Below, in pieces: positions 1-29,172 of a stretch of 42,666 bases of DNA (the stretch's first letter is position 1; each line of letters opens with the position of its first letter). A model generated the notes under the pieces. That model did not search any database. It had not been told where the DNA came from and saw nothing but the letters and a program-made list of their open reading frames with translations. A program made the translations under genes and the position numbers. Source of the stretch: Patescibacteria group bacterium (GTDB lineage Bacteria; Patescibacteriota; Kazan-3B-28; UBA10110). Location of the stretch: contig JBAZHL010000002.1 in the NCBI GenBank assembly GCA_041652335.1, positions 1 to 42,666 of the forward strand, written 5' to 3'.

Positions 1-1374
1 TTCGAAGCGGATCTTGTTCCAAATATAGTTGAGGATGATGTACATCCCGATCGGTCGCAGTGATTCTTCCAAGTCGCGAATGTTAAACACCACCAACCCA
101 CGATCGAGATCGAAGTTGGTTGGTTTATTAAATACTCCGGCAAAGGTACCGGTAACATATTTGTCGAGCCGCTGAGCCAAGCTCTCGGCACCAGTCACAT
201 TTTTTAGCACATTATATAGATCCTCCATCGTGGGGGCAGGATTTTTTTGACTATTAATATCGATGGTGATGTCGCGAGAAGCGTAGGTCTCACGGATGGC
301 GCGATCCATCAGTGCGTCTTCTTCGGGAGTGAGCGCGCCTAACATTAAGTTCATCAAGCCCAGGATGGCGATAATAGCCCCTCGGAGATTTTTTTCTCCG
401 TCGGCGTCGGCTCCTAAATCTGGCAGATCAAACGGGTTGATTCGTTTATCGGAGTTAAGGCTGACCGATAGGTAGCTACCGCCAACCGCTTTAGATAGGG
501 TCTCGTATTCGTTTTCTGGGTCGATCACAAAGACATCGGTACCCAACATTAGGCTACGCATGATCTCCAGCTTTACGGCGTAGCTTTTACCACCACCGGA
601 TTTGGAGAATACAACCATGTTGGCGTTTTCGAGCTTAAACCGATCAAACAGGATCAGACTATTATTGTGGCGGTTAATGCCATAAAGGATACCTTCGTTA
701 GTGGTGAGATCGGAGGAAACAAATGGGAAAGTAGTGGCCAAAGAAGAGCTGGTCATATTGCGTAGCACCTGCAGTTGGTCGTAAGCCAATGGCAGGGTAG
801 AGTTAAGCCCCTCTTGCATTTGGAGCAGAGCTTGCTTGGTGTAAACCAATTGACCACCTAAGGCCGTCTCGATCCGATCAGTGGCTAAGTTGAGATCTTC
901 TAAACTCTTACTATATATAGTGAAATACAGGGCGTAGTGGAAGAAGCGCTCTAACCCACGTTGCAGGCGGTCGCGGAGCTCTTCGGCATCTTGATACGCT
1001 ACCTCCAATTCTGGATCACGGATCGCGCCCTTCTCCTCGTTAATGCGAAGAGAGGATTCCATCTCGGTGACTTTGCGACGGAGCAGCTGCATAATGTCCG
1101 AACTTTCCATTGGGTAGATGTGCATCGAGACATCAAAGCCCATATCAAAGTTGATGATCGGACTAAGCCAGTTAGTCTCGACATATTGAGGATAGGTGAG
1201 CACAAATAGTGTCCGGACGTAGTAGCTGTTTAGCTGGAGGTAGTTGGTTTTGAGGGCGATTGAAGTGGGGGCGATCAGATCGCGCACAGAAAATAAGCCT
1301 TGTTCAAAGACCTCCTGCGCTCGGCGTACAGCAGCCTCTTCTGGGTCGACTTTTTTGCGTTTAAATAAAGCCAT
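1..1374 (-). CDS. virB4: VirB4/TrsE-like type IV secretion ATPase, main body (C-terminus runs off the window start)
   Basis: Absent from the ORF track because it has no stop inside the window. My reverse-strand translation from the ATG at 1374..1372 stays open for 458 codons to position 1 (MALFKRKKVDPEEAAVRRAQ...YVRTLFVLTYPQYVETNWLSPIINFD...). Walker A FSKSGGGKSY is encoded near 580-607, followed by VFVIDPENEY. This is the typical pattern of Gram-positive-type VirB4 ATPases. Confidence 0.85.
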   Translation of the reverse strand, partial: MALFKRKKVDPEEAAVRRAQEVFEQGLFSVRDLIAPTSIALKTNYLQLNSYYVRTLFVLTYPQYVETNWLSPIINFDMGFDVSMHIYPMESSDIMQLLRRKVTEMESSLRINEEKGAIRDPELEVAYQDAEELRDRLQRGLERFFHYALYFTIYSKSLEDLNLATDRIETALGGQLVYTKQALLQMQEGLNSTLPLAYDQLQVLRNMTSSSLATTFPFVSSDLTTNEGILYGINRHNNSLILFDRFKLENANMVVFSKSGGGKSYAVKLEIMRSLMLGTDVFVIDPENEYETLSKAVGGSYLSVSLNSDKRINPFDLPDLGADADGEKNLRGAIIAILGLMNLMLGALTPEEDALMDRAIRETYASRDITIDINSQKNPAPTMEDLYNVLKNVTGAESLAQRLDKYVTGTFAGVFNKPTNFDLDRGLVVFNIRDLEESLRPIGMYIILNYIWNKIRFE

Positions 1375-2057
1375 TATGATTCCTTTTCGGCTGCCATCTT
1401 AGTGATAACATCTGCATCTACGGCACTGATATTAAACAGTTTCTGCCGGCGGGCTAAATCTGGGTTGTAGGTAGAGTAGAGTAGATCGATTAGCTCCTCG
1501 GTGTTGAGTAGAGCGCTGCTGAGCCCTAAGGGCGCCAATCCGTTAACTACCAAATTGGCTCGACGGAGCAGCTCGGCTTTGTTCTCCTTAAATTTTCCGC
1601 TGACGGTAACGGCCTGTTTGCTAAATAGGCGAGTAAAAAAGTTACTGGCAGCGGCTAACCCGGGAGAGTAGGGGATCACCACGTAAAAGGTTTTGCTCAT
1701 AATATTAGCTACGCCGATCAACTCTTTGATAAAGTTGGTGTACTCTTGGGTTTGTAGCTGCAACAGTTCGTTGTTTTGCGCACGGCTAATATTGCCTAAA
1801 TGAGTTAGGTAGTTATCTAAATCTAAGATCCGCGATTGGACCACAATTTCGATCGGGAAGCCCAAGGCGTTAAGAAAGCTTTGGTAGTTTTCCAGTAGGG
1901 CGGTCTGTTCATCCTGCGATTTAAGGTTAAAGTTGATCGAGTTAACCATTAAAACGGCCCGTAGGCTGCCGTCCTTCATAACGATCGCCCCTTCTTTAAT
2001 GGACTTGAAGGGGAGATATTTTTGAGTACTGGCGGATGTTTTTTGTTTTTTGGCCAT
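1374..2057 (-). CDS. VirB4 N-terminal-region protein (separate 227-aa ORF)
   Basis: ORF track. LPFKSIKEGAIVMKDGSLRAVLMVNSINFNLKSQDEQTALLENYQSFLNALGFPIEIVVQS resembles the extreme N-terminus of Tn916-ORF16/TrsE-type VirB4 proteins. Its stop TAA overlaps the downstream ATG as TAATG. Confidence 0.6.
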   Translation of the reverse strand: MAKKQKTSASTQKYLPFKSIKEGAIVMKDGSLRAVLMVNSINFNLKSQDEQTALLENYQSFLNALGFPIEIVVQSRILDLDNYLTHLGNISRAQNNELLQLQTQEYTNFIKELIGVANIMSKTFYVVIPYSPGLAAASNFFTRLFSKQAVTVSGKFKENKAELLRRANLVVNGLAPLGLSSALLNTEELIDLLYSTYNPDLARRQKLFNISAVDADVITKMAAEKES

Positions 2058-2062
2058 GGATT

Positions 2063-2602
2063 TTAAACTTCGGTGTCTGATAAGACATCTTCTACCCCCA
2101 AATCGCGTTCGTTGGTGGGTGGAGCGGCGGGTTTGGTTGTGCCTAAATTATTAATTTCGTGGGTGGCGGAGATCTCTGCCACCTCCATTTTACCACCCGT
2201 ATCTAAGATAGTGGCCAATTTTTCGAGTTGGCTTTTGTCGATCGACTTAGCGGCAGTAGGAGTGGTAGCGGTTGGTTTGGCCAATTTAACCGCCATACTA
2301 TCTAAATGATTATTCTTATGCCAGAATCTCTGTTTGGGGGCAGTTAGAAAAGATCCTAAGCTGGCCAGGAAGGTAATAAACGGCCGGCCGTTTATCTGGA
2401 CAAAGGCTAACATCACGGCCAGAGCCATCAGAGCTAAACCGATGACTACGAATTCAGTTATAAACAGATAGCCAATAGCGTAATACTGGTAGGCGATAAA
2501 GGTAAGAGCCGCGCCGCCTAATAGATAGAGGAATTGCTTTAAGGTAAGCGGGCCTACCAGCTTATCTTCTTTATCGATATTTTGAGGGATCTTAGTAGCC
2601 AT
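2063..2602 (-). CDS. PrgI/TcpE-family (VirB3-like) small T4SS membrane protein with Thr/Pro/Ala-rich tail
   Basis: ORF track. N-terminal KIPQNIDKEDKLVGPLTLKQFLYLLGG followed by two hydrophobic helices matches the PrgI/TcpE signature. It lies 5 nt upstream of the virB4 pieces. Confidence 0.6.
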   Translation of the reverse strand: MATKIPQNIDKEDKLVGPLTLKQFLYLLGGAALTFIAYQYYAIGYLFITEFVVIGLALMALAVMLAFVQINGRPFITFLASLGSFLTAPKQRFWHKNNHLDSMAVKLAKPTATTPTAAKSIDKSQLEKLATILDTGGKMEVAEISATHEINNLGTTKPAAPPTNERDLGVEDVLSDTEV

Positions 2603-2607
2603 AATGT

Positions 2608-5280
2608 TTATCTATTTTCTTGTGGCGGTAACTCTGCCTTAGTGTTTTGGCGAATCAGTCTAACTCGCTGCAGGACCTGCGATAAGCGAGTGTTGTTTAA
2701 AGTGGTACCGGTCATGCCAGCGCCCAATCCGCCAGAATCTTGGAAGAACTTATCTAAGTTATTTTTAGTGGTCTGGTCTAACGCACTATCCACGGTCATG
2801 TCGTCAGTTACATCGGCGATATCTCCGACCCGGCTGATCAACTGGTCGTACATGTTATTGGCTCCGGTGTGGATGTTGTCTCTAACAGCTTCCACGGTTA
2901 ACTTAGGATCATCTTCAATCCGCTCTTGGATGAGTAGATCAACGGCTTGTTGATAGCTTTGAGTAGTATCACTTCCTAACTCGGCGCTGACTTGAGCGGA
3001 TAGGTCACCAGCAGTTTGTTGGGCGGAGCGAGTCTCATCTAAGGCAGGTTTGATCCGATCGATCAGTTGTCCAATTGTCATATTCCCGGCTTTAGCCCGA
3101 TCTCGCAGTTGGCGGGATAGTTGGATATCGGCGGGCGACATCTGAGCCTCCTGCGAGATGATGGCCAAGGCGGATATCTCTTCTTCTCTAATAGCAGGGA
3201 TATCCACGCGGAGCTGGGTTTTGCCAATTGCTCTTCCCTCTGAAAGGTCGCTCATAATAGCGGTGCCATCTTCGTGTTGAGCCAAGGCATCGAGAATCTC
3301 AGGGCGAATTTTTTCTAATTCAGCCTGAGCGGCTGGACTTTTAGATAGTTTATCGATCGCGGGGCTCTCGATCATAGTATCGATAGCCTGTTCGTCTAAG
3401 CGGAACGGTTTTAACGCAGCGGTTAGTGTGCCGCGAGCGATCTTTGAACGGGCTTCTGCCTGAGCTAACTGCAGCTCTCGGCTACTGGAAGCGTAATGGG
3501 GAGCGGAGATGCCTCCCGCAGCTTCATCATCCAGATCATCCCGCTGGGTTGGTATGTACTGGTTGCCTCTTTTATCGGCTGGAGGTTCCACGTCGCGACT
3601 ATCCAGATAGTAGGCTTTCATGGTTGGGTCTACTAAGCGATCTCTCTCGAAGGTGGTCAGACGTTTGATGCGGGAAGTTAGCCAGCCCTGGTTATTTTTC
3701 TCATTCTTATCGGCCATAAACTCACCATATAGGTCGGCGTCTGTGATTTTTTGTTGATCGCTTCGGCTATCTTTCATCTTTGGATCTTGCTGATGTATGG
3801 CGTGTTGCATTGAGCGGAGCAACCGGTAGGCGTTATAGCGTTCCTTAGGAACCAGTCTGGTGTTACGAACTACATCATCAGCCACGCGAGCGTTAGTAGC
3901 ATAGTTGATGTAGCTATCTGATGAGTCTAATAGGGTTTTGGCCAATGCGTCATACCCAGCATAGCCGTGCCGTTTAGCAGTTTCTTCGTGAACCTCTCCG
4001 CGAACACCCTTGATTAACCCAGGACGCCACGGATTCCACCCAGCTATATTCAAATCCGCAAGACGGGTGACACCGCGAGCGGCTGCCATGCCAGATTCAC
4101 TTTCTCTGGTTTTTTTCAGTGCTTCCCGGGCTTTTTTGATAGTTGCTGGGATAGCGCCTATTTGGGTTCCAATGTTTCTAAATTTTCCAAATTTTTCACT
4201 ACCGGTAGCTAAGTTCAACAGACCACCGGTGGCACTGCGGGTTAGGCCAATGCCCTTCCCGGCCAGATTTTTGCCGGTGACTGTATCGGCCGCTTGCTTC
4301 CACCCTTTCTGACCCAGGCTGATCATCTTGTTGGGTGATTCCACCAATCCAGTGAGAGAGCCACCTAACTTTAACATCTTAGGCACGGTACCGCCCATAT
4401 AGATCAGAGTCATGCCAATGATGAAGGAAAATAGATCTTTTATGTTATCACCCAGTGAGCCGTTGGGTACATTGATGGAGTTGCTGAGTTCGTAAATAAA
4501 CTCACTGGGTTTACCACTTTCGATCTGTTCAAGCACAAATACTCCCAACGCCAGAATGGCGTAGGTGATTGGCATAGCCAGTAACCACTTGAATACATTC
4601 TCAAACCACTGAGATGCCATTTTTTGAGTTGTAGGTAGCACGCTCAAACCAAACGATAACGGGGCAATGATCAACATCACAAACAGGTTGATAGCTCGCT
4701 CGATCAGCAGTAGGGCTAACTTGATCAATACCCAGGCGGATATGACCATGGCGACTAATACCAAAACAGTGCCATTGCTAAACTGAAAAAAGTGATCCGT
4801 GATCTTGATGCCGGCCAGATCTTTTAGGTAGGTGGTAATATCGGTGAGAGTCACTCCAATTCCGGTAGCGGAAAATAAATAGGACACACTGTTGAGCAGC
4901 GCATTGCCAACCTCAAGTAGGGCATAGAAGATAGGTTGGCTAAGATTGGCTAAAATGGCCATGATGATAAAGCTCCCCAAAAACTTTTTGATGTTGTAGG
5001 TGCCGGTACCAATACGTAGAATAATAGCAATCGAGGCAATTAGTAGCCCCAGGAGCAAAAACCCGTTGGCTAAACTAAGTGCGGCGGCGTGGGCGCCGTC
5101 CAGAGTTTTGGCTAACGCCGAGTCGGAGGAGAAGACCCAGTTGGGTTCGCCTAACAGGATGTCTAATATTTGGTTAACGATCGGCATAATAATGCCGGCG
5201 ATCATCTCAGCGAGCAGACCGATAAATCTGCTTAGTAGCTCTACCAGTCCCATCCCCAATTTAGTGATAAAGTCGCTCAT
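2608..5280 (-). CDS. VirB6/TrbL-like polytopic membrane protein with long hydrophilic C-terminal extension
   Basis: 890-aa ORF. The first ~330 aa carry multiple hydrophobic helices and the remaining ~560 aa are hydrophilic. It is the first gene of the minus-strand T4SS operon, 5 nt upstream of the PrgI-like gene. Confidence 0.55.
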   Translation of the reverse strand: MSDFITKLGMGLVELLSRFIGLLAEMIAGIIMPIVNQILDILLGEPNWVFSSDSALAKTLDGAHAAALSLANGFLLLGLLIASIAIILRIGTGTYNIKKFLGSFIIMAILANLSQPIFYALLEVGNALLNSVSYLFSATGIGVTLTDITTYLKDLAGIKITDHFFQFSNGTVLVLVAMVISAWVLIKLALLLIERAINLFVMLIIAPLSFGLSVLPTTQKMASQWFENVFKWLLAMPITYAILALGVFVLEQIESGKPSEFIYELSNSINVPNGSLGDNIKDLFSFIIGMTLIYMGGTVPKMLKLGGSLTGLVESPNKMISLGQKGWKQAADTVTGKNLAGKGIGLTRSATGGLLNLATGSEKFGKFRNIGTQIGAIPATIKKAREALKKTRESESGMAAARGVTRLADLNIAGWNPWRPGLIKGVRGEVHEETAKRHGYAGYDALAKTLLDSSDSYINYATNARVADDVVRNTRLVPKERYNAYRLLRSMQHAIHQQDPKMKDSRSDQQKITDADLYGEFMADKNEKNNQGWLTSRIKRLTTFERDRLVDPTMKAYYLDSRDVEPPADKRGNQYIPTQRDDLDDEAAGGISAPHYASSSRELQLAQAEARSKIARGTLTAALKPFRLDEQAIDTMIESPAIDKLSKSPAAQAELEKIRPEILDALAQHEDGTAIMSDLSEGRAIGKTQLRVDIPAIREEEISALAIISQEAQMSPADIQLSRQLRDRAKAGNMTIGQLIDRIKPALDETRSAQQTAGDLSAQVSAELGSDTTQSYQQAVDLLIQERIEDDPKLTVEAVRDNIHTGANNMYDQLISRVGDIADVTDDMTVDSALDQTTKNNLDKFFQDSGGLGAGMTGTTLNNTRLSQVLQRVRLIRQNTKAELPPQENR

Positions 5281-5591
5281 AACAATGTTTTAGTTACTGG
5301 GTTAAAACTGATCTGAGATATTAAGCTAATACCCCCTGAGAGGCTCGAAGGGGGATTTAGGGAAGGATTGTATTTGGTATTTGTTTTTTTCATACCTGTT
5401 TGGGTTGGTTTTGACGTTACTTTATTATAGCAGATATTTTTATTTTAGTCAACCCCTTTACCGATAAGCAGAATTAGGGTCGGGGAGTGTGTTTTTGGCC
5501 AGTTGATGGGTGCCTCGTGTTCTTTACAAAATCGGCAATATGTGATGTAATAAAGTAGCTGTAGTATAATGTTTTTAGATAATCAACGCAG

Positions 5592-7070
5592 ATGACTGAT
5601 CCAAAACCCGAGCCTACTCCGCCAAAAATGGACAGCTTGTCGTCGGAGCAGTTGCCAAGCGACCTCCGAGTGGCCGTGTCTGGAGGGGGGATAGACAAGC
5701 CAAATCGTTTGGGTTCTGTGGCGGTACTCCCTGGTGAACCTCGAAAGAAGGGGAACGGATCTAAATGGTTGGCCATTGGCGGTATTGTCCTGTTTGTACT
5801 GTTGCTTTTAACTGGAACGGCCTATTTTCTGTTGGGGAAGGTTAATTTAGGGATCAATCGGGGGACATTAAAACTGACTCTGGATCCGGCGGGGGCGGAC
5901 GTGGTGATCGATGGTAAATTTAAGCGGCAGTCGGTTAGCTCGTTGAACATCAAATTAAAAGCGGGCGAACATACCCTAATAGCCACTAAGGAAGGTTATC
6001 TTGATTGGGAGCAGGAGTTTACTTTATCGGCCAGCGAGACAAAAGAGATCAATTTAAAGTTGGATCCTACCCCAAATATCGAAGTATTGATCGAGGGTAA
6101 CATCGCCTTTCCGGAATTGGTTAGAAACGGGGCGGCGGTGGCCTACCTCACGCCGGGTAGTGGATTTTCGGTAACAGATCTAAGCGTTAAAGAGCAGGCC
6201 GCTTTGTTTGGTGGGGAGATAATCCCACAGACCCAATTGGTCAACTGGGCGCCAGGTGAGCCGATGGCTTTAGTCAAACTCGGTGGTAATCCCAAACTAC
6301 CCAACGTTTACGATAACCGAGGGGTGCGGGGTCGGTTTGTACCGCTGGGCGAGCGACCGGTACAGGGTGCGCCGCGAGATACGGGCATAAGCACGTGGTT
6401 GTTTGATGATGCACGCCAAACCGCTCAGGGATGGCAGCCAGTTTGGTTAAACGAGAGTATTCAAAATCTTGATTTTTCACCGGATGGCAGCCGGATAGTT
6501 TATCTTTATATCACTGCTGACGGCGAGCGATCGTTAGTGGTGGCTCACCCAGACGGAGGGGATTGGGAACGAGTAGCGCTGGAGGTAACCTTGGAAGATC
6601 CGGAGTTGGTTTGGCTGAATAACGACCAATACATTTTGATGATCGATGCCAACGGCAACGACGGCAATGATCAGTTATTTGATTTGGCGAGTAAAAATCT
6701 TAATACGGTGATGCCTGATCGAATAGCAAATACACCGGTGGCCAGCTCACCGGATGGCACTCGGATCTTGTATATATCCGGAGAGAACGGTCGCAAGTTG
6801 GCGGTATGGAACGTGGTCAGCAACTCCCGCGAAAAATTATTTGAGAGCGAGATCGGTGAGAGTACACAGTTTGTGTGGCAGACTGATAATAGGTTTATTG
6901 TTAGTAAGGATGATGGCAGCCTGTGGTATTGGGATCTCAACGGTAAAGAAAAGCCGGTGCAATTTATTAGCGCGGTGGGAGCGCTGGAGCCAGTTCGGTT
7001 ACTTTATTCGATTATTAATCACCAATTGCTGGTAGTTGAGCAGACACGTATTTTAAGTCTGAAGGCTTAA
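5592..7070 (+). CDS. membrane-anchored PEGA-domain / TolB-like beta-propeller protein
   Basis: One TM segment (WLAIGGIVLFVLLLLTGTAYFLL). PEGA-like segment LKLTLDPAGADVVIDGKF...GEHTLIATKEGYLDWEQEF. Repeated SPDGSRIVYLY and SPDGTRILYISGENG propeller-type motifs. The start codon is uncertain because there is no clear SD. Confidence 0.6.
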   Translation: MTDPKPEPTPPKMDSLSSEQLPSDLRVAVSGGGIDKPNRLGSVAVLPGEPRKKGNGSKWLAIGGIVLFVLLLLTGTAYFLLGKVNLGINRGTLKLTLDPAGADVVIDGKFKRQSVSSLNIKLKAGEHTLIATKEGYLDWEQEFTLSASETKEINLKLDPTPNIEVLIEGNIAFPELVRNGAAVAYLTPGSGFSVTDLSVKEQAALFGGEIIPQTQLVNWAPGEPMALVKLGGNPKLPNVYDNRGVRGRFVPLGERPVQGAPRDTGISTWLFDDARQTAQGWQPVWLNESIQNLDFSPDGSRIVYLYITADGERSLVVAHPDGGDWERVALEVTLEDPELVWLNNDQYILMIDANGNDGNDQLFDLASKNLNTVMPDRIANTPVASSPDGTRILYISGENGRKLAVWNVVSNSREKLFESEIGESTQFVWQTDNRFIVSKDDGSLWYWDLNGKEKPVQFISAVGALEPVRLLYSIINHQLLVVEQTRILSLKA

Positions 7071-7074
7071 CGAC

Positions 7075-9231
7075 ATGGCCGACGAAGTAGGAGGGATACA
7101 ACAGTGGTCAACTGGTAGTGGTGATGATGACGATCAGCGCCAACAAAAGGATCGAGATGACTCGAACCAGCCTTCAAATACAAGACGTCAACCCAAAAAA
7201 AAGAGCGAAGACAAACCCAAGAAGTCGGATCAGTCGGGAAAACCTACCGGAAAAGACAAAGACGACGATAAAAAGATCCCTCGAGGCAGCCGGCCCTCTG
7301 GGGCAGATAAAAAGGCAAGCGGTGAACCGCAGCCCAAGCCCGCTCCGACTACTAAGCCAGCGGCTCAACCTTCGGGAGCGGGGAGTGGGGCTGGCCAAGC
7401 CGGAAAGGCGGTAGGTGAAGCTGCCGGTAAAGCGCGAGCAGGGGCAGAAGCGGCCGCCCGGCCTGCGGTTGAGGCGGGGAGACAGGCGGCGGTTCAGGCA
7501 ACAGCCAGGTTGGCAGAGGCAGCGGCCAGGATAGCGGCAGAGGTGGCGGCCAAGGTAGCGAAGGCAACCGAAAAGATAGTCCAAGCGGTAGTTAAATTTT
7601 TGAGTAACCCGTATGTTTTAGCGGCAGTTTTGGTGATCGTAATTGTGATGGTGTTATTCAATATCTTTATGGGATCGGTTAACCAAATTAGTAGTTTGGC
7701 GGGCGGATCGATCTTTGTGCCAGCCGACCATAATAATCCCGCTCATCAGCAGATCGTTAACCGACTAAAAGAAAAGATGAGTGGTTGCGACCCAAAACTG
7801 GTGGTTTATGATGGCGGAATTAGCGATATTGATTGGCAAGTTGATCCGACCAGCGGTGGATACACTCATAAGTTGGACATTAGATTATTGAAGACCTTAG
7901 ATTATTTGACCGACAAACATCGTATTCGGATCGATCTGCTAAAGACTGGCGCTCCAGATCTGGTGCGGGATCTTTTTTTGAAAAAGAAGGCTCAGTATAG
8001 TTCGACTGGCCAGGATGAAGTTGAACAGAAGGAGACTTTGTCGGCTTTTACCACTGGCCAGGCCATGGCGATAGTGGAGATCGACCGAACCAAGATCCCG
8101 GAGCTGCAGTCGGCCGATGTGGCTTGTAACGCGCCGGTGCCGGCGCCGATTGAGGTTGGTTGGCAACGAACGGTGGGGGAAAAAACCATCCGTCCTATCT
8201 GGGAGGAACTGGCTTATGATGTAGGATTTTTGGATAAGAATTATTTTATTTATCAGGGAGTTGCCGGAAGTGATGACCAGATGGCGATCCAACGAGTGGC
8301 GCGCGCATATAAATTAAGCGAACCAGTGGACGGTGCTTATGATCTATACAAGGAGACATTTAACAAGTTGCCTCGCATTGTGGATCTGATTGATCGGGCA
8401 TTAGTCTATGGCCAGAATAATTTTTCGGGCGACCAGGCGTTGGACTCTCGAGCATTAGCGTATCTGCAAAAAGCGAGAGAGAGCTATGCATCGCTGGTGA
8501 CCTTGGTAAGTGGAATAAATAGTGGGATGGCTGAAGAGGAGATCGCGGAGACGATCAAAGAGCTGGGGGCGGATGGCAGTTTGGCCACCATGAGAACGGG
8601 TGCCCGGTTTGTGTATAAAGCCACGCAGGTTAAGAATAGTGTTAACTGGGCCAAGAAGAAAAAAAATGGGGATCTGACTTGGATTAAAGCAGATGAGTCG
8701 CGCAACAAGATCCGCCAGGTATTGGCGGAGCTGTTGGTGATGCCACGGGACACCTCGCTCGAAGGAACCCCAAAGTTGTTTGATAGTAGCTTGGTAGCAA
8801 AACAGATAATTACTTTTTCGCCGGAGGATGATTTAGATAATGGCTTGGAGAACGTGGATGTATTTCCCAGAGGGATTGTATCGGTCAATACGGGTGGAGT
8901 AGCGATGGAGACTCTGTCGGTTGATTCAACTACTGGCAATGCGGTAGGTAATGGGTTAATCGATTATGCCGACAGCCAGTTTAGCCACGCCCCGATCGAT
9001 AACGGTACCTTTAGTAAAAATGGCGCTAACTATATTTACAAACAAGTTCGCCCAGAGGACTCAACCTGGGAAAAGGTGGGCGCCTTTGTTTGGAACTATC
9101 TAACGATGCCAGGGCAGTTATCATCAGCCAATGACAAGCTACACGAGCTAACGGTGGGGGGATGTGTGTCGGGGATGAACGAAAGCTGTCGCAAGGTCAG
9201 CTATAAAGATTTTCTATATGTGGCCTTTTAG
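7075..9231 (+). CDS. 718-aa membrane-anchored protein of unknown function (Lys/Asp-rich then Ala-rich N-terminus, one TM, ~520-aa extracytoplasmic domain)
   Basis: Long ORF starting 4 nt after the preceding stop. Low-complexity residues 1-170, TM segment VLAAVLVIVIVMVLFNIF, then a complex-composition domain. Confidence 0.75.
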   Translation: MADEVGGIQQWSTGSGDDDDQRQQKDRDDSNQPSNTRRQPKKKSEDKPKKSDQSGKPTGKDKDDDKKIPRGSRPSGADKKASGEPQPKPAPTTKPAAQPSGAGSGAGQAGKAVGEAAGKARAGAEAAARPAVEAGRQAAVQATARLAEAAARIAAEVAAKVAKATEKIVQAVVKFLSNPYVLAAVLVIVIVMVLFNIFMGSVNQISSLAGGSIFVPADHNNPAHQQIVNRLKEKMSGCDPKLVVYDGGISDIDWQVDPTSGGYTHKLDIRLLKTLDYLTDKHRIRIDLLKTGAPDLVRDLFLKKKAQYSSTGQDEVEQKETLSAFTTGQAMAIVEIDRTKIPELQSADVACNAPVPAPIEVGWQRTVGEKTIRPIWEELAYDVGFLDKNYFIYQGVAGSDDQMAIQRVARAYKLSEPVDGAYDLYKETFNKLPRIVDLIDRALVYGQNNFSGDQALDSRALAYLQKARESYASLVTLVSGINSGMAEEEIAETIKELGADGSLATMRTGARFVYKATQVKNSVNWAKKKKNGDLTWIKADESRNKIRQVLAELLVMPRDTSLEGTPKLFDSSLVAKQIITFSPEDDLDNGLENVDVFPRGIVSVNTGGVAMETLSVDSTTGNAVGNGLIDYADSQFSHAPIDNGTFSKNGANYIYKQVRPEDSTWEKVGAFVWNYLTMPGQLSSANDKLHELTVGGCVSGMNESCRKVSYKDFLYVAF

Positions 9232-9234
9232 GGC

Positions 9235-9263
9235 TTGGTGAGCCGGGGGTGCCAGTATATAAT
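9235..9263 (+). promoter_or_regulatory. candidate sigma70-type promoter for the tRNA cluster
   Basis: TTGGTG (9235..9240), 17-nt spacer, TATAAT (9258..9263), about 29 nt upstream of tRNA-Ser. Confidence 0.45.
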
Positions 9264-9291
9264 ATGGTAGTCCCACATTGAAAAATCTTAA

Positions 9292-9384
9292 GGTGAGGTA
9301 CCCAAGTGGCTGAAGGGGCTGGTTTGCTAAACCGGTAGAGGGGAGAAATCCCCTGCGAGGGTTCGAATCCCTCCCTCACCGCCA
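9292..9384 (+). tRNA. tRNA-Ser(GCU), CCA encoded
   Basis: Hand-folded. Acceptor GGTGAGG/CCTCACC, anticodon stem CTGGT/ACCGG with loop TTGCTAA, long variable arm, T-arm GAGGG-TTCGAAT-CCCTC, then G and CCA. Confidence 0.9.
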
Positions 9385-9387
9385 CGG

Positions 9388-9509
9388 TTTGGCGATCTTG
9401 CTTTGGCGAGATGGGCAGACCGTTGGTGAAGACGGACAGAGGGATGAGAGGTTTATACCCGACTTATAGAATATATATGGAAGGGTAAATCCCTCCCTCA
9501 CCGCCACGG
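9388..9509 (+). repeat. 100-bp insert followed by a 22-bp exact direct repeat of the tRNA-Ser(GCU) 3' end; carries a conserved core shared with 22397..22484
   Basis: AATCCCTCCCTCACCGCCACGG occurs at 9366..9387 and again at 9488..9509. The core 9439..9495 reads GAGGG-AT-GAGAGGTTTATACCCG-AC-TTATAGAATATATATGGAAGGGTAA-AT-CCCTC. Confidence 0.85.
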
Positions 9510-9597
9510 AGGCGTGGCCGAGTGGTTTATGGCGCTGGTCTTGAAAACCAGTTGGGATGCAAGTCCCTCACAGGTTCGAACCCTGTCGCCTCCGCCA
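9508..9597 (+). tRNA. tRNA-Ser(UGA), CCA encoded
   Basis: Acceptor GGAGGCG/CGCCTCC, anticodon loop CTTGAAA, long variable arm, T-arm ACAGG-TTCGAAC-CCTGT, then G and CCA. Confidence 0.9.
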
Positions 9598-9675
9598 ATT
9601 AATAATGTAGGTTCGATCCGCTGTCTGGCGGACTACTATCACAGATAATAGTTAGAGCATTTAATATCTATAGCC

Positions 9676-10164
9676 ATGGAAGAGGAAGTTAAAAAACCGA
9701 TTGAGATAGAGCCGATCGAATGGGAGGCGGAAAGTTTTGAGATCCATCGGCGAGGTTTGAGCTGGTATTTGATTATGGCAGCTGTGTTGGTGTTGGTGTT
9801 GATTTTTGCTATTTATACTCATCGCTGGTTACTGTCTGGGGTAGTGATAATGGTGGGGGTAGCATTATATTTATCCGGCAGGATGTCACCGGAGAAAGTT
9901 AATTGCCGAATAGATGGCCAGGGGTTAACGATAAGTGACAAGATGTTTACGTACGGTCAGATCAAAAGTTTCTGGATCTCCCAAACGGCGGGGGTCGCCA
10001 AGCTTAATGTAATTTCTACTCAGAGATTTATGCCAGTAACCTCTCTGATGTTACCGCAGGGTCTGGAAGAAAAGGTGCGAAAGGCGCTCAGCTCCAGGTT
10101 GCCTGAGTCGCCCAATCAAAAAGAAGATTGGATTGACAGGATCAATCGCATCCTGCGAATATAG
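9676..10164 (+). CDS. hypothetical two-TM membrane protein
   Basis: 162-aa ORF with two adjacent hydrophobic helices (WYLIMAAVLVLVLIFAIY, LLSGVVIMVGVALYL). tRNA-Arg starts 8 nt after its stop. Confidence 0.6.
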   Translation: MEEEVKKPIEIEPIEWEAESFEIHRRGLSWYLIMAAVLVLVLIFAIYTHRWLLSGVVIMVGVALYLSGRMSPEKVNCRIDGQGLTISDKMFTYGQIKSFWISQTAGVAKLNVISTQRFMPVTSLMLPQGLEEKVRKALSSRLPESPNQKEDWIDRINRILRI

Positions 10165-10171
10165 GTCTTAT

Positions 10172-10248
10172 GCGCCCGTAGCTCAGGGGATCAGAGCGAT
10201 CGGCTACGGACCGATAGGTCGGGGGTTCGAATCCCTCCGGGCGCACCA
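10172..10248 (+). tRNA. tRNA-Arg(ACG), CCA encoded
   Basis: Acceptor GCGCCCG/CGGGCGC, anticodon stem ATCGG/CCGAT with loop CTACGGA, T-arm GGGGG-TTCGAAT-CCCTC, then A and CCA. Confidence 0.9.
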
Positions 10249-10414
10249 AAAACTAACACTTATCTTTTGATGAGTGGTGGTTTTTTATTGAGCCAAGAAG
10301 GGATTCGAACCCAGTGAAAGGGGTCGGGGAAACGGGAGTTTCCCCGTAGTGGAAGAATCGAAACCGCAAGGTGTCGAGGAGGGGTGAGGCAGCCCGAACC
10401 CCGACGGGTTCCAT

Positions 10415-10432
10415 ATCCCTCCGGGCGCACCA
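10415..10432 (+). repeat. 18-bp exact direct repeat of the tRNA-Arg 3' end (second copy)
   Basis: ATCCCTCCGGGCGCACCA occurs at 10231..10248 inside the tRNA and again at 10415..10432, 166 nt downstream. Confidence 0.85.
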
Positions 10433-10581
10433 CGTCAGAACAACTACGCTCCTCGCGAACCGATGGAATCGGTTCGCTTGTGGTCCGCTTAGTTGTTCTT
10501 CCTTTCCAAATCATGAACGCCTCGAGGTTTGCACCTCGGGGCTATTGCATGATTTGGACTAAAAGCACCAACTGACGAAAC

Positions 10582-10607
10582 AAAAATCCCCCGGCTGGGG
10601 GATTTTT
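10582..10607 (-). terminator. bidirectional intrinsic terminator downstream of the pilin gene
   Basis: AAAAATCCCCC-GGCT-GGGGGATTTTT. A 7-bp GC-rich stem with an A-tract on one side and a T-tract on the other, 29 nt past the stop of 10636..10986. Confidence 0.75.
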
Positions 10608-10635
10608 GGATTGAAACTTGAATCTGCGCCGGTAA

Positions 10636-10986
10636 TTAGGAGGTAGTGGCGCCCAAGGTGGTGATAACCAGCTGAGCGATCAACGAGGCCAAAGCGACGA
10701 TGACTAACCCAGTAACTGCGTTAATGATCATCTGCTTAGCTTTCTCAGCACCTTTTTCTCCACCGGTGATGTACATAATGCCACCGTAGATCAGATAGAC
10801 AACAGCCAAGGCGCCAGCCAATCCCAGCAACCAGTTGCCAACCTTAACGATGATGCGAATGATGTCGGTATTGGCGCCGACCTGCCCAACTGCAGGAGCC
10901 TTAACTTGAGCGAAGACGGCTGCAGCCTGTCCAACGGTAGCCACTGTGGTGATAGCTACGCTGACAGCATGTTGAACTTTTCCCAT
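10636..10986 (-). CDS. VirB2/TrbC-like T4SS pilin (CPR-type T4SS pilin family)
   Basis: 116 aa. Signal-like N-terminus, then two hydrophobic helices around LAVVYLIYGGIMYITGGEKGAEKAKQMIINAVTGLVIVALASLI, the characteristic pilin core. Confidence 0.65.
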   Translation of the reverse strand: MGKVQHAVSVAITTVATVGQAAAVFAQVKAPAVGQVGANTDIIRIIVKVGNWLLGLAGALAVVYLIYGGIMYITGGEKGAEKAKQMIINAVTGLVIVALASLIAQLVITTLGATTS

Positions 10987-11058
10987 AAGTTACCCCTTTC
11001 TTAATAAAATAAATTAAAGTAATAACATTGTATCAGGAAAACGGTCTATCGAGTAGTT

Positions 11059-11301
11059 TTAGGTTAATAGAGTATTGTTGACCAGAGCGATCAATAATGA
11101 AGCCACAAACATTATTACTAAGCCAACGATGGCGGCAATAATGATTTTTTTACCACTCTCAGCATTCCCTTGCATATATTGAAAACCTCCCCAGATCAGT
11201 GCCAACACTACTAAAGCTCCACCGGCAGGGAGAAGTAGGGTATTGGCCACCTGTTCGGCCACGACCCTTAAGCGATCTACGAGGTTTAAGATAGTTTCCA
11301 T
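11059..11301 (-). CDS. second VirB2/TrbC-like pilin paralog
   Basis: Start trimmed to the internal ATG (METILNLVDRL...). ALVVLALIWGGFQYMQGNAESGKKIIIAAIVGLVIMFVASLL has the same core as the neighbouring pilin. The ATG overlaps the upstream SBP stop as TAATG. Confidence 0.6.
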   Translation of the reverse strand: METILNLVDRLRVVAEQVANTLLLPAGGALVVLALIWGGFQYMQGNAESGKKIIIAAIVGLVIMFVASLLIALVNNTLLT

Positions 11302-12641
11302 TAGTCCTGGGCAAGTTGGTTGATGTCTCTGGCGGCAGTGTCGATGGCGGTTGAAACTGCCACTCCGTCGTGCAAGACACTGGTAACCATGCGACCGAAG
11401 ATCGCCTCTACCTCTGGGGAATTGTGGCGATACCAAGATGTACTGTTGGCGGCCTGGCTGGCTACTGGGCCGTAGTACTGCCGGTCGACATACGCGTCGT
11501 TACTTTCTTTGGTGGCCGGGACGCGTTTGCTGGCCGACGAGTATTTGCCTTGGTTCTTGATAACAAATTTGATAAAGTCCCAAGCCTCATTTGGATGCGC
11601 GCAATTCTTAGACACTGTTTCACCCCAGTAGTTGGCAACTGTTAATGGTTCGCCCTGTCGCAATTGAGGTAGGGATGTTGTCTCAAATGTCAGGTTGGGG
11701 GCAAACTTTCTAATATTAGCGACTTGGTAGGAGTAGCCAATCATCATGGCCGCTTTGCCTTCCATAAATGCTTGGACATCCATGGGGAATTTAAGTGATC
11801 CGTCGTTATTCTTGGCGTCGGTGTAGGTGTAAACTGACGAACTGGGGTTGGCAAAGTCGGTATAGAATTTTAGCGCCTCTCGCCCAGAGAAATAAGCGGG
11901 ATCCGAATTGGGAGCGGACAGATCGAAGGTGGCCTTAGTGTGATCGGTGGTAGTCATCTCGCCGCCGTACTGCATAATTAGAGCGGCCAAGATCTCGGCA
12001 AAACGAGGAATACTATCGGCGGCGGTGCCCAACGGGATAGCGGATTGTTTAATGGTGTCGCCGCTGCCGTATTTGGTGAGTTTGGGTACCAGATCGACTA
12101 CCTCCTGCCAAGTCTTGGGCGGTTGCTTGATATTTAACTCGTCAAAGATATTGGTGTTGTAAAAAAGCATTAGGTTATCCAAATAGTAGGGAATGGCGTA
12201 GATGCGGTTGGCATCCACAAAATCGTTAACCACTACCGGATAAAATGTCTCCGAGTAGGTTTGGGTGCTCATCATCTCCGCTGGCATCGGGCTGATGTGG
12301 TTTTTGTTGTATGGTAGCCAGTCGTTGTGGATCATAAACATGTCTGGTCCATTTCCGTCCGCAACCTGCTTGATCAGATCTGCCTGATAATCGTAGACGG
12401 TCTCGCCTGGTTTAAGGCTAACCTTGCGAACGACTACGGTAATGTTGGGGTGATCCTCCTGGTAGAGTTTAACGATCTCGTCCAGGGCGGTGCTCTCATC
12501 AAACAGGCGATCGTACTGTAGTACGATCGGGGTAGTTTGATCGATCACCACGTTATTGGCGGTTCGATTAAAACAACCGGCAGCTCCCAAGACTAAGATC
12601 AACATCAAAGATAATGGCAGATACGATCGGATCTTTTTCAT
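11301..12641 (-). CDS. ABC-transporter extracellular solute-binding lipoprotein (sugar-type, family 1)
   Basis: 446 aa. Lipobox LVLGAAGC. Overall length and composition typical of sugar SBPs. No permease or ATPase gene is adjacent. Confidence 0.75.
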   Translation of the reverse strand: MKKIRSYLPLSLMLILVLGAAGCFNRTANNVVIDQTTPIVLQYDRLFDESTALDEIVKLYQEDHPNITVVVRKVSLKPGETVYDYQADLIKQVADGNGPDMFMIHNDWLPYNKNHISPMPAEMMSTQTYSETFYPVVVNDFVDANRIYAIPYYLDNLMLFYNTNIFDELNIKQPPKTWQEVVDLVPKLTKYGSGDTIKQSAIPLGTAADSIPRFAEILAALIMQYGGEMTTTDHTKATFDLSAPNSDPAYFSGREALKFYTDFANPSSSVYTYTDAKNNDGSLKFPMDVQAFMEGKAAMMIGYSYQVANIRKFAPNLTFETTSLPQLRQGEPLTVANYWGETVSKNCAHPNEAWDFIKFVIKNQGKYSSASKRVPATKESNDAYVDRQYYGPVASQAANSTSWYRHNSPEVEAIFGRMVTSVLHDGVAVSTAIDTAARDINQLAQD

Positions 12642-13498
12642 AATTTTTTAGTGAATTCTTTTAATTCTTTTTTTAGATCGGGATGATCGACACTATATGC
12701 CAACAGGGTGCGGAAGTAATTTGTGGGATCACCTGTAGTATACCATCGGCCGCTTTTAATTTGACGTACTCGTCCCGGATATTTCTTTAACATAGCGGCG
12801 ATACCGTCCGCTAACCAAATCTCACCGCCTTTACCAACTGCAGTTTTTTTAAGATAGCCGAAGATCTCTGGAGTAAGTAGGTAACGACCAAAGCTGACTA
12901 AGTTAGATTTAGTCTCCTTGGGGGATGGTTTTTCCATCAGTTTGGTAATCCAGCCTTTTGAATCAAGTTCAACCACGCCGTACTTGTGTACCTCGCTCAT
13001 AGGCATTGGCTGAACGCCTAAAATAGAGCAACCATATTGGTTGTACTCATCAATCATCTGTTGGCTAAAGGATGGTTGGCCAGGCTTGATCTTAACCAAA
13101 TCGTCGCCGAAGGCTAACACAAACGGTTCGTTACCGATGGCGCTTTCGGCGGAGATCACAGCGGCACCGTTACCATACCCGCCCCTCTGTCGAACGTAGA
13201 TAAAATTAGCTAATTTATCTATTTTTCGCAGTTCCTTTAATAAGGCTACCTTGCCCGCAGCTTCTAAATGATCCTCTACCTCATAGGCGCGATCAAAATG
13301 GTCTTCGACTGCTCGCTTTTGAGCGCTCGTGATCAATACAATGTCGGTAATGCCGGCGGCTACCATCTCCTCGACAATATATTGGATGATCGGCTTATCG
13401 ACGACTGGCAGCATCTCTTTGGGGATAGTTTTAGTGACAGGCAAAAACCTGGTTCCAAACCCAGCGATAGCAATAACCCCCTTGGTAATTTTTTTCAT
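12638..13498 (-). CDS. galU: UTP--glucose-1-phosphate uridylyltransferase
   Basis: N-terminal AGFGTRFLPVTKTIPKEMLPVVDKPIIQYIVEE signature. ATGA overlaps with both neighbouring genes. Confidence 0.9.
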   Translation of the reverse strand: MKKITKGVIAIAGFGTRFLPVTKTIPKEMLPVVDKPIIQYIVEEMVAAGITDIVLITSAQKRAVEDHFDRAYEVEDHLEAAGKVALLKELRKIDKLANFIYVRQRGGYGNGAAVISAESAIGNEPFVLAFGDDLVKIKPGQPSFSQQMIDEYNQYGCSILGVQPMPMSEVHKYGVVELDSKGWITKLMEKPSPKETKSNLVSFGRYLLTPEIFGYLKKTAVGKGGEIWLADGIAAMLKKYPGRVRQIKSGRWYTTGDPTNYFRTLLAYSVDHPDLKKELKEFTKKL

Positions 13499-13932
13499 CG
13501 TATTTTAATTACTTTAGTTCGACTGGTTGATCTAATTATAGGTAAGGTAATGGTTAGGATCCCATCTTTGAGTGATGCTTGGATATCATCGGCGTCCACG
13601 GATAGGGGCAGATGAACCTCTCTGGCGATCGGCCCCCAGTGACACTCTTTAGTATAGTAGGTGTCCATTCGGTTGGTGGGCGGGGTGGAGCCTTTGTGAA
13701 TAAATAGGATATCTTGATTGACCGTGATGCTAACGTCTTCTGCCGTGGCTCCCACGATCGGAGCCATAATTATTAAGTTTTGGCCTCGACGCGACAGATC
13801 AATGGGTAGCTCTAATTCTTCACTGATCTCTGGCTCTTCTATTTCGGCTTCCTCTAAACTGGCCGGTAATCGGCGGTTGGTTTGACGGGTAAAGATTTGA
13901 ACAGAATTACCGATCTTCATCTGTACTACCAT
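13495..13932 (-). CDS. Hsp20/alpha-crystallin family small heat-shock protein
   Basis: 145 aa. C-terminal alpha-crystallin-like segment (HLPLSVDADDIQASLKDGILTITLP). Confidence 0.75.
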   Translation of the reverse strand: MVVQMKIGNSVQIFTRQTNRRLPASLEEAEIEEPEISEELELPIDLSRRGQNLIIMAPIVGATAEDVSITVNQDILFIHKGSTPPTNRMDTYYTKECHWGPIAREVHLPLSVDADDIQASLKDGILTITLPIIRSTSRTKVIKIR

Positions 13933-13976
13933 TATATATAAGGGGTAGCATTTTGGTAATTTAAGCGGATTAATCT

Positions 13977-16355: not shown

Positions 16356-17028
16356 CCGGAAACTGCTTGATACTATATTTCCGCCGCGCTGTAGTGGCTG
16401 TCAAAAAATAGGTGATTGGTTATGCCAAGATTGTTGGCAGAGTTTGGCGCTGGCTAAAACGCCACTGTGTTATCGCTGTGGTCGGATCTCACCAGGCTTT
16501 AGAATTTGCCCTGGTTGTCGAAAGGCTGGAGGGCTCTCCCGGCTGATCTTTTGCGGCTATTGGCAGGATCCCCTGCGTAGGTTGATATTAAATCTTAAAT
16601 ATCGCCGCCTGCGGATTTTAGCTGATTATTTGATCGAACTGATGGTTAACTCTTGGGGCTTGGTAGCTGAGCCGATTGATTTAGTGGTGCCAGTACCATT
16701 GCATTGGCGGAGGAGTTGGCAACGAGGGTTTAACCAAGCAGAGATCTTGGCTACTGGGGTGGCTAAAAAGTTAGGGGTAAATACAGCCGATCTGTTGGTG
16801 CGTCAGAAATCAACCCAACCTCAATTTAGCTTGGCTAAAACCAATCGACAGAGTAATGTTTTAGGGGTGTTTGCCGTGAAGAAGCGATGGCAGGGATCGG
16901 TTAGCGGTAAGATCGTATTGGTGGTAGATGATGTAGTGGCCACTGGCTCAACCATTGAGGAGTGCGCTAAAATATTAAGGCAGAAAGGAGCTAAACAAGT
17001 ATGGGGATTAGTGATCGCCCGGGCTTAA
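16339..17028 (+). CDS. comF: ComF-family phosphoribosyltransferase-like protein
   Basis: N-terminal Cys clusters (CSGCQK..CQDC, CYRCG..CPGC) and a C-terminal PRTase motif VLVVDDVVATGSTI. The GTG start overlaps the upstream gene end. Confidence 0.8.
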   Translation: MWEQLSRKLLDTIFPPRCSGCQKIGDWLCQDCWQSLALAKTPLCYRCGRISPGFRICPGCRKAGGLSRLIFCGYWQDPLRRLILNLKYRRLRILADYLIELMVNSWGLVAEPIDLVVPVPLHWRRSWQRGFNQAEILATGVAKKLGVNTADLLVRQKSTQPQFSLAKTNRQSNVLGVFAVKKRWQGSVSGKIVLVVDDVVATGSTIEECAKILRQKGAKQVWGLVIARA

Positions 17029-29124: not shown

Positions 29125-29172
29125 AACTTAGCTCATTGAAATTTAGTGTGAGCGCCAAAGGAGGTGATAAGC

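Follow-up and report, generated by a model that had tools for sequence, protein, structure and literature searches.

The stretch of DNA examined here (42,666 nucleotides of contig JBAZHL010000002.1 from assembly GCA_041652335.1; hereafter the window, 42.7 kb) comes from a Patescibacteria group bacterium and opens with a compact cluster of genes for a type IV secretion system (T4SS). We consider it very probable that this locus is a chromosomal T4SS of the Patescibacteria type, a derivative of the MPF-FATA conjugation systems carried by a genome of the Kazan-3B-28 lineage. Genes for TrsD, PrgI and a VirB6-like protein adjoin virB4, pilin genes are found within about 20 genes of it, and no relaxase gene lies nearby (the far flank was read in relatives). 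These are among the traits by which the Patescibacteria type is recognized, and its phylum-wide set has been described as TrsD, VirB3, VirB6 and arrays of VirB2, with no relaxase (Quiñonero-Coronel et al. 2025, PMC12102498). A first-pass annotation of the same DNA had proposed a domesticated, non-conjugative machine, a proposal that is supported by the absence of a relaxase, a type IV coupling protein (T4CP) and an integrase, by the conserved synteny, and by the housekeeping genes that flank the cluster. The features on which the argument draws are the following:

1..1374, minus strand: body of the VirB4 ATPase, 458 codons, reading frame open to the window edge
1374..2057, minus strand: TrsD-like protein, equivalent to the N-terminal domain of VirB4 but separately encoded, 227 amino acids
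2063..2602, minus strand: PrgI/VirB3-like membrane protein, 179 amino acids
2608..5280, minus strand: VirB6-like protein, an extended polytopic membrane protein, 890 amino acids
5281..5591: divergent control region, 311 bp between the virB6-like and PEGA genes
5592..7070, plus strand: PEGA-domain protein, N-terminally anchored, with a probable beta-propeller, 492 amino acids
7075..9231, plus strand: single-pass membrane protein of 718 amino acids
10636..10986, minus strand: VirB2-like T4SS pilin A
11059..11301, minus strand: VirB2/TrbC-like pilin B, 80 amino acids from the ATG at 11301

Mapping of the open reading frames (ORFs) reproduced all the positions and gaps given in the first-pass annotation, including the 311-bp divergent spacer. 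The minus-strand genes are tightly packed, with 5 nt between virB6 and prgI, 5 nt between prgI and trsD and a 1-nt overlap between the last two, the stop codon of the trsD-like gene sharing one nucleotide with the start of virB4. For comparison, we collected 80 loci with virB4 and the surrounding ±10 kb, 54 of which carry a TrsD homologue. The order virB6-prgI-trsD-virB4 is present in most of these 54 loci, and relatives at 70 to 95% VirB4 identity share the full arrangement, with the PEGA protein, the 718-amino-acid protein and the pilins as well. The VirB4 homologues also indicate the source lineage. The closest named homologue is from Kazan and is 91% identical, with named Kazan-3B-28 bins at 73 to 91%, and the organism names among the best 120 homologues listed (~590 to 680 amino acids, 60 to 100% identity) are Kazan, Patescibacteria group, or plain "bacterium" or "uncultured bacterium". 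This placement in candidate division Kazan/Patescibacteria fits the earlier guess that the organism is an episymbiont with a reduced genome.

The body of VirB4 matches the NCBIfam profile NF045971 (CD1110-family VirB4) with an E value of 8.5e-95 over profile positions 179 to 618. The fragment in the window scores 318.6 bits, below the 325-bit cut-off, because its C-terminus is missing at the window edge: about 140 of some 598 residues, Walker B included, fall beyond the window start. A protein of 598 amino acids (P0002), identical over the 458 residues available in the window, passes the same profile with 394.4 bits (cut-off 325). The Walker A motif (KSGGGKSY, containing GGGKS) lies inside the window part of VirB4, and Walker B (LLVIDEAW) is seen beyond it in the consensus of the alignment that has P0002 as its first sequence.

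The N-terminal membrane-associated domain of VirB4 is supplied by the separate TrsD-like gene. Its 227-amino-acid product aligns with positions ~1 to 150 of VirB4 profiles and with the TrsD profile NF041427, and its precomputed Pfam family is PF26593 (TraC-like). At one of the compared loci (L032, 9113-11734), TrsD and VirB4 are fused in a single ORF of 873 amino acids that matches positions 108 to 893 of an 894-position VirB4 profile in one stretch. The TrsD-like protein is therefore really the N-terminal domain of VirB4, and within the phylum the two domains can be encoded by one gene or by two. Of the 54 TrsD-bearing loci, 53 encode TrsD on its own, so the split in the window is not a local frameshift; TrsD has also been reported as the most abundant T4SS component across Patescibacteria (PMC12102498). 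The first-pass annotation, which spoke of an "N-piece" of VirB4, was thus right about the domain, but the separate gene is no local oddity, since TrsD followed by VirB4 is the normal arrangement of the phylum.

PrgI was recognized by Pfam (PF12666, 38.2 bits against a gathering threshold of 27 bits). The protein has one strong hydrophobic segment, and its gene is located directly upstream of trsD-virB4 in most of the TrsD-bearing relatives. The VirB6-like protein consists of about six or seven hydrophobic segments within residues ~1 to 340, followed by a hydrophilic tail of ~550 amino acids. In an iterative hidden Markov model (HMM) search of the 80 loci, its membrane domain grouped with 31 syntenic ORFs located upstream of PrgI elsewhere, with E values of 1e-41 to 1e-95. 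Seven of these 31 homologues match the Pfam TrbL/VirB6 family (best 2.8e-7), and the orthologue in a 95% relative (L086) carries a weak TrbL match. The identification as VirB6 is thus supported at the level of the family and by gene position, and it is the weakest of our calls.

The first-pass annotation had placed VirB2-like pilins apart from the core at 10636..11301, and we found both of them, 1.4 kb past the divergently transcribed genes. Pilin A matches T4SS_pilin (PF18895, 1e-11, 45.2 bits against 26.6) and has an N-terminus resembling a signal peptide and two hydrophobic helices. Pilin B was scored on a longer ORF with a TTG start (11059-11436), which matches TrbC (1.6e-6, 28.7 against 27.9 bits) and also T4SS_pilin (E=1.2e-5), there with 25.8 bits, under the 26.6 cut-off. 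The first 45 codons of this ORF are not pilin-like; hence, the most likely start is the ATG at 11301, which shares 1 nt with the stop codon of the solute-binding-protein gene and agrees with the end coordinate of the first-pass annotation. The 95% relative has a 78-amino-acid pilin in the place of pilin B. Both pilins are the last genes of a minus-strand string with overlapping stops and starts (10636-13932), in the order Hsp20 (13495-13932), nucleotidyl transferase (12638-13498), solute-binding protein (11301-12641), pilin B and pilin A, and a hairpin resembling a bidirectional terminator follows pilin A at 10587-10602. Hsp20 and comFC flank the pilins both here and in Candidatus Southlakia epibionticum ML1, which suggests an old synteny.

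No relaxase, T4CP (VirD4 or TcpA type), integrase, replication or partition gene was found among the scanned ORFs of the window. All the other sizeable ORFs were scanned against protein families, and they are mostly housekeeping genes, with a few that match no family: synthetases of the TrpRS/TyrRS type and LeuRS, DnaE, L19, RNase HII, NusA, a Clp/Hsp100 ATPase, phosphoglucomutase, YchF, EF-P, SSB and S6, together with ComFC-like and SpoIID-domain proteins. The description of the remaining ~33 kb as mostly housekeeping DNA devoid of mobile-element genes was thereby confirmed. Three further large proteins, possibly of the envelope, are encoded in this part: one of 792 amino acids with SpoIID and Ig-like domains (13977-16355), one of 655 amino acids with a weak PD40 match only (29164-31131) and one of 445 amino acids with a TIG/Ig domain (37548-38885). 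GC content is even across the first 14 kb (0.46 to 0.52) and matches the surroundings, and the ORFs are all intact.

The genes past position 1 were read in relatives, since two contigs with identical genes also stop inside virB4. In the 91% Kazan relative (loci L003 to L005), virB4 is followed, with gaps of 5 to 10 nt, by genes for a 295-amino-acid protein with one hydrophobic N-terminal segment and no family match, a 569-amino-acid GspE/PilB-type ATPase, and a protein of 204 amino acids as called on the contig or 228 from an upstream start in our own ORF map. Past these three genes come a class-I tRNA synthetase, TsaD, FemAB and a Mur ligase. The gene order through the synthetase is the same in relatives at 70 to 76% VirB4 identity (L007 to L009, of which L008 and L009 reach that far), and in the 95% relative the genes from the solute-binding protein via the pilins to virB4 run left to right as they do in the window. 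According to the first-pass annotation, a relaxase, a T4CP and an integrase with att repeats just beyond position 1 would have made this an ordinary integrative and conjugative element (ICE). None of these were seen in the closest readable relatives, and no relaxase, T4CP or integrase gene occurs within 10 kb past virB4 in L003 to L005. The conserved gene order, together with the uniform GC content and the undamaged ORFs, favours a machine resident in the chromosome over a mobile one. An apparent conflict between the synthetase past virB4 in the relative and the LeuRS of the window was dismissed, since the two share only 23% identity and are thus different class-I synthetases.

The ATPase of the virB4 string (L004, 10630-12339) matches TIGR02533 at 7.9e-137 and TIGR02538 at 2.2e-126, and VirB11 only at 3.7e-12; it is not of the VirB11 type. 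A GspE/PilB-type ATPase is also encoded two genes after virB4 in L007, L008 and L009. The gene immediately after virB4 varies, and in the 70 to 75% relatives it codes for a protein of 423 to 433 amino acids with bacterial TSP3 repeats (L008, 11796-13097; L009, 11728-12999). From its domains, which in L008 also include a DUF11/isopeptide-forming fimbrial-type domain, the product in L008 may be a surface adhesin.

The two genes transcribed divergently from the core had been described as coding for giant, uncharacterized surface proteins. At 492 and 718 amino acids they are not giant, and the label of uncharacterized holds only in part, as a PEGA-domain protein adjoins the T4SS cluster of Southlakia. 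There, the exported protein SEML1_0005 lies beside a lysozyme-like gene at the cluster edge and is marked as essential in the transposon sequencing (Tn-seq) table (PMC10633639). The 492-amino-acid protein of the window has a short cytoplasmic N-terminus, one transmembrane segment at residues 62 to 80, a PEGA domain (35.6 bits against a cut-off of 20.8) and a C-terminal region with several weak matches of the PD40, TolB and propeller types. Its family comprises 32 ORFs in the iterative HMM search of the 80 loci; these are spread over 27 of the 54 TrsD-bearing loci, never farther than about 8.3 kb from virB4. Outside the Kazan lineage the gene is almost always downstream of virB4 on the same strand, whereas in Kazan it occupies the divergent position. 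The first-pass annotation had suggested that the core and the divergent proteins be checked for co-occurrence across related genomes; the association of the PEGA family with virB4 was recovered in about half of the TrsD-bearing loci, within the ±10 kb available.

The 718-amino-acid protein has a charged, low-complexity N-terminal tail, one transmembrane segment at about residues 181 to 199 and a conserved ectodomain of ~500 amino acids. Its family is small, with 19 clusters at 90% identity and 50 at 50% among 1.84 billion representatives. A profile of the ectodomain showed that a domain of ~120 residues (about 255 to 375) recurs in proteins of 1,075 to 1,939 amino acids encoded downstream of virB4 at 13 further loci, in 10 of which the large protein also follows a PEGA-family gene. 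In either gene arrangement the PEGA gene comes first and the gene with this domain second, and wherever a locus has the two (13 loci) they are read from the same strand. Most of the large relatives keep a motif SAHxxGQAxDIxEID, of which the SAHxxGQAxD part, in our reading, resembles the Zn-binding SxHxxGxAxD of LAS peptidases (M15/VanY/Hedgehog type). The 718-amino-acid protein reads SAFTTGQAMAI instead, and all 17 aligned members of its family have SAF/L/Y..GQA.[A/S]I, with the His and the Asp replaced. Several members also gave sub-threshold matches to LAS-related families (Peptidase_M15_2, 0.012; VanY, 0.039; Extensin-like_C, 0.035), and a profile match to Indian hedgehog (E=1.5, likewise sub-threshold) falls exactly on the SAH..GQA.D-type motif. 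These weak but convergent hints point to a degenerate LAS-like domain, a lead rather than a finding. Three Foldseek searches of the PDB and BFVD with two AF2 models of the ectodomain (mean pLDDT 66 and 74) found no fold match with E below 0.07, a profile search of the PDB with the whole 718 family returned low-complexity noise only, and Pfam found no match in three of the large relatives (1,161 to 1,429 amino acids).

In the 311-bp region between the two divergent gene sets, a promoter scan found a candidate sigma-70-type promoter for the virB6 string (TTGACT-17-TATAAT, 5452..5424 on the minus strand), with 11 of 12 matches and a TG preceding the second hexamer. Both hexamers, as well as a plus-strand TTTACA...TATAAT block, are kept in the intergenic regions of L004 and L008. 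A G+C-rich inverted repeat, CCCCCTGAGAGGCTCGAAGGGGG, lies at 5333-5355, between the promoter-like site and the start of virB6, in what would be the 5' leader; it has no match in Rfam. A regulatory RNA in this spacer was considered and rejected, as the Rfam scan of positions 1 to 14000 (E<=0.1) gave three tRNAs and one sub-threshold antisense match that overlaps a tRNA.

Between the 718-amino-acid gene and the pilins there are three tRNA genes and a gene for a 162-amino-acid membrane protein (9676-10164). We rejected the latter as a part of the T4SS, to which it is probably unrelated, judging from sequence that its homologues in four distant loci adjoin proteins with RecG-like N-termini. The end of tRNA-Ser(GCT) (9366-9387) has an exact 22-nt copy at 9488-9509, abutting tRNA-Ser(TGA), and the end of tRNA-Arg (10222-10248) has an 85% copy at 10406-10432. 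These duplicated 3' ends (9292-10432) look like att-site scars left by past integrations. No integrase is encoded in the window, and the repeats, 122 and 184 bp apart, sit on one side of the T4SS; therefore, they do not bracket the cluster.

The closest described counterparts are the T4SS of Southlakia (SEML1_0006-0019, PMC10633639) and the systems of the VirB4 clade surveyed across Patescibacteria (PMC12102498). All of these are chromosomal and monoderm, with a VirB4 of ~600 amino acids that comes after a separate TrsD-like gene, PrgI and an extended VirB6. Epibiotic growth of Southlakia requires the cluster and its pilins, and the cluster includes neither a coupling protein nor a relaxase (Wang et al. 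2023, PMC10633639). As in Southlakia, VirB2-like pilins lie nearby, no relaxase or T4CP is found in the cluster, a PEGA-domain exported protein adjoins it, and Hsp20 and comFC are located by the pilins. However, the window has two pilins and Southlakia six, and we detected no equivalent of the lysozyme and peptidase genes that Southlakia has downstream of virB4 and, in the window, no counterpart of its NTF2-like protein (VirB8 fold). The PEGA protein of the window has an added propeller and is encoded, with the 718-amino-acid protein, divergently from virB6, and the Kazan relatives carry a GspE/PilB-type ATPase in the virB4 string. The Kazan-3B-28 lineage is also a different one, and the text of the 2025 survey mentions neither Kazan, PEGA nor propeller (PMC12102498).

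The Gram-positive MPF-FATA systems (PrgH-PrgI-PrgJ of pCF10, CD1110 of Clostridioides difficile CTn2, TrsD of pGO1) have in common with the window the best VirB4 family (CD1110), PrgI and TrsD homologues, the order VirB6-like/VirB3-like/VirB4 and no outer-membrane core. In contrast to them, the window contains no relaxase, T4CP, oriT-associated gene or surface adhesin, its context is a conserved chromosomal housekeeping one instead of a plasmid or ICE, and VirB2-type pilins are present, which the Gram-positive systems do not have. Ptl of Bordetella and VirB of Brucella, which have no T4CP, and the DNA-uptake systems ComB of Helicobacter and Ced of archaea likewise need no coupling protein or relaxase (PMC12102498, PMC12857230); therefore, a machine driven by VirB4 can serve protein export or DNA import. 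These systems are, however, diderm or archaeal with other sets of components; the similarity to CedB is marginal, and no Ptl-like toxin or ComB-specific genes were seen.

The mechanism that we propose draws on established T4SS biology and on the Southlakia Tn-seq data. VirB6, VirB3, TrsD and VirB4 would form a translocon in the cytoplasmic membrane. The role of VirB4 in the extraction and polymerization of pilins is established for Gram-negative systems. Here, ATP hydrolysis by VirB4 would pull the VirB2-like pilins out of the membrane and drive their assembly into a short pilus or a conduit that crosses the cell wall. The two divergently encoded proteins (PEGA/propeller and 718 amino acids), each single-pass, would expose large domains on the outer side of the membrane, within the wall, and might be wall-spanning or wall-remodelling accessories that fill the roles of VirB8 and VirB1. 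The machine would serve contact with a host cell, or transfer to or from it, rather than conjugation.

Several points weigh against this interpretation. For the VirB6-like protein of the window, we found no Pfam match at E<=0.1 (PF04610 TrbL/VirB6 included), and its direct matches are weak (a weak precomputed TrbL_3 match, NCBIfam NF046089 at 1e-3, TraJ at 0.025); the HMM searches by which the first-pass annotation proposed to check the components thus recovered VirB4, PrgI and the pilins directly, and VirB6 only through its family. Our scans of the window turned up nothing resembling VirB8 or VirB1, and for that reason the roles given to the divergent pair are conjecture. Linkage between the PEGA family and virB4 was counted within 10 kb to either side of virB4, without a genome-wide background control. 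The window ends inside virB4, and what follows in the source genome would be as in relatives at 91% identity or less. A T4CP or relaxase could be encoded elsewhere in the genome, outside the 42.7 kb, and VirD4-like T4CPs encoded away from the cluster are common in Patescibacteria (PMC12102498). Finally, the data on essentiality stem from another class, Saccharimonadia, and would extend by analogy to the Kazan-lineage machine, which is known from its genes alone.

The same genes could be read in other ways. One is a DNA-uptake machine like ComB or Ced that imports host or environmental DNA or nucleotides, which we consider improbable. DNA uptake likewise needs no relaxase or coupling protein, neither of which is present, and the VirB4 of the window is weakly similar to the DNA-import ATPase CedB; however, this similarity is far below that to conjugative VirB4 (44.7 against 394 bits). 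The ComFC gene (16339-17028) is 5 kb from the pilins, in a pilin-Hsp20-comFC neighbourhood also present in Southlakia, and in class ABY1 the T4SS co-localizes with comF, recG and radA. The 162-amino-acid gene by the pilins adjoins RecG-like genes in other lineages, an association that has the look of a plain chromosomal neighbourhood. Moreover, competence in Southlakia runs on ComEC and type IV pili, and deletion of comEC stops transformation but not viability, while the T4SS is essential; hence, the essential role of the T4SS is not ComEC-dependent DNA uptake (PMC12857230). A conjugative or integrative element whose transfer module is this cluster and whose relaxase, T4CP and integrase lie outside the window, or a decaying remnant of such an element, is very improbable. 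The components do descend from MPF-FATA, with the CD1110 ICE type as the best VirB4 family, tRNA genes with duplicated, scar-like 3' ends lie beside the block, and a minority of Patescibacteria carry relaxases. Against an element of this kind stand the housekeeping flank that begins after only three genes in L003 to L005, the same order in L008 and L009 and the synteny kept down to 70% VirB4 identity, the absence of integrase, relaxase and T4CP genes from the 42.7 kb, the intact ORFs with a GC content like that of the surroundings, and the one-sided position of the tRNA-end repeats.

A different doubt concerns the divergent pair, since the T4SS core might be real and the PEGA/propeller and 718-amino-acid proteins unrelated neighbours that happen to belong to the envelope. 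We consider this unlikely, although it deserves some weight. Neither protein matches a described T4SS component family, the sole hint being CD1108 (E=1.4e-3, over the transmembrane region); the fold searches with the 718-amino-acid protein were empty; about half of the related loci have no PEGA-family member in the available sequence; and the linkage count had no genome-wide control. On the other hand, the PEGA family stays close to virB4 in half of the TrsD-bearing loci and in several differently named lineages, despite the change in gene position, the domain of the 718-amino-acid protein follows the PEGA gene on the same strand wherever both occur, and the PEGA-domain SEML1_0005, alike at the level of the domain, is found beside the Southlakia cluster and is marked essential. 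A bolder interpretation, which we hold tentatively and think more doubtful than not, takes the PEGA/propeller proteins and those with the p718-type domain as an unrecognized, conserved extracytoplasmic module of the T4SS that stands in for VirB8 and VirB1 in spanning or remodelling the wall, in which the domain of the 1,075- to 1,939-amino-acid versions would be LAS-like and its apparent metal ligands would have been lost in Kazan. With the gain of a GspE/PilB-type ATPase, the Kazan machine would then combine parts of a T4SS with parts of a type IV pilus.

The interpretation that we prefer, a resident and non-conjugative T4SS of the Patescibacteria type, is already published for the phylum (Wang et al. 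2023; Quiñonero-Coronel et al. 2025; also a 2025 review). What may be new is the Kazan arrangement, the breadth of the linkage between virB4 and the PEGA/propeller family, the domain common to the 718-amino-acid protein and the large downstream proteins, and the PilB-type ATPase in the virB4 string. The organism is uncultivated, and the locus alone does not make the question of function testable. No T4SS other than that of Patescibacteria has been reported as indispensable to the survival of its own bacterium (PMC10633639, PMC12857230). The locus described here adds an example from the Kazan lineage, with a core and a pilin/Hsp20/comFC neighbourhood that resemble those of Saccharimonadia. The PEGA/propeller and p718-type-domain families accompany virB4 and do not feature in the discussion of the published survey; the missing wall-spanning parts of this machine could reasonably be sought among them.

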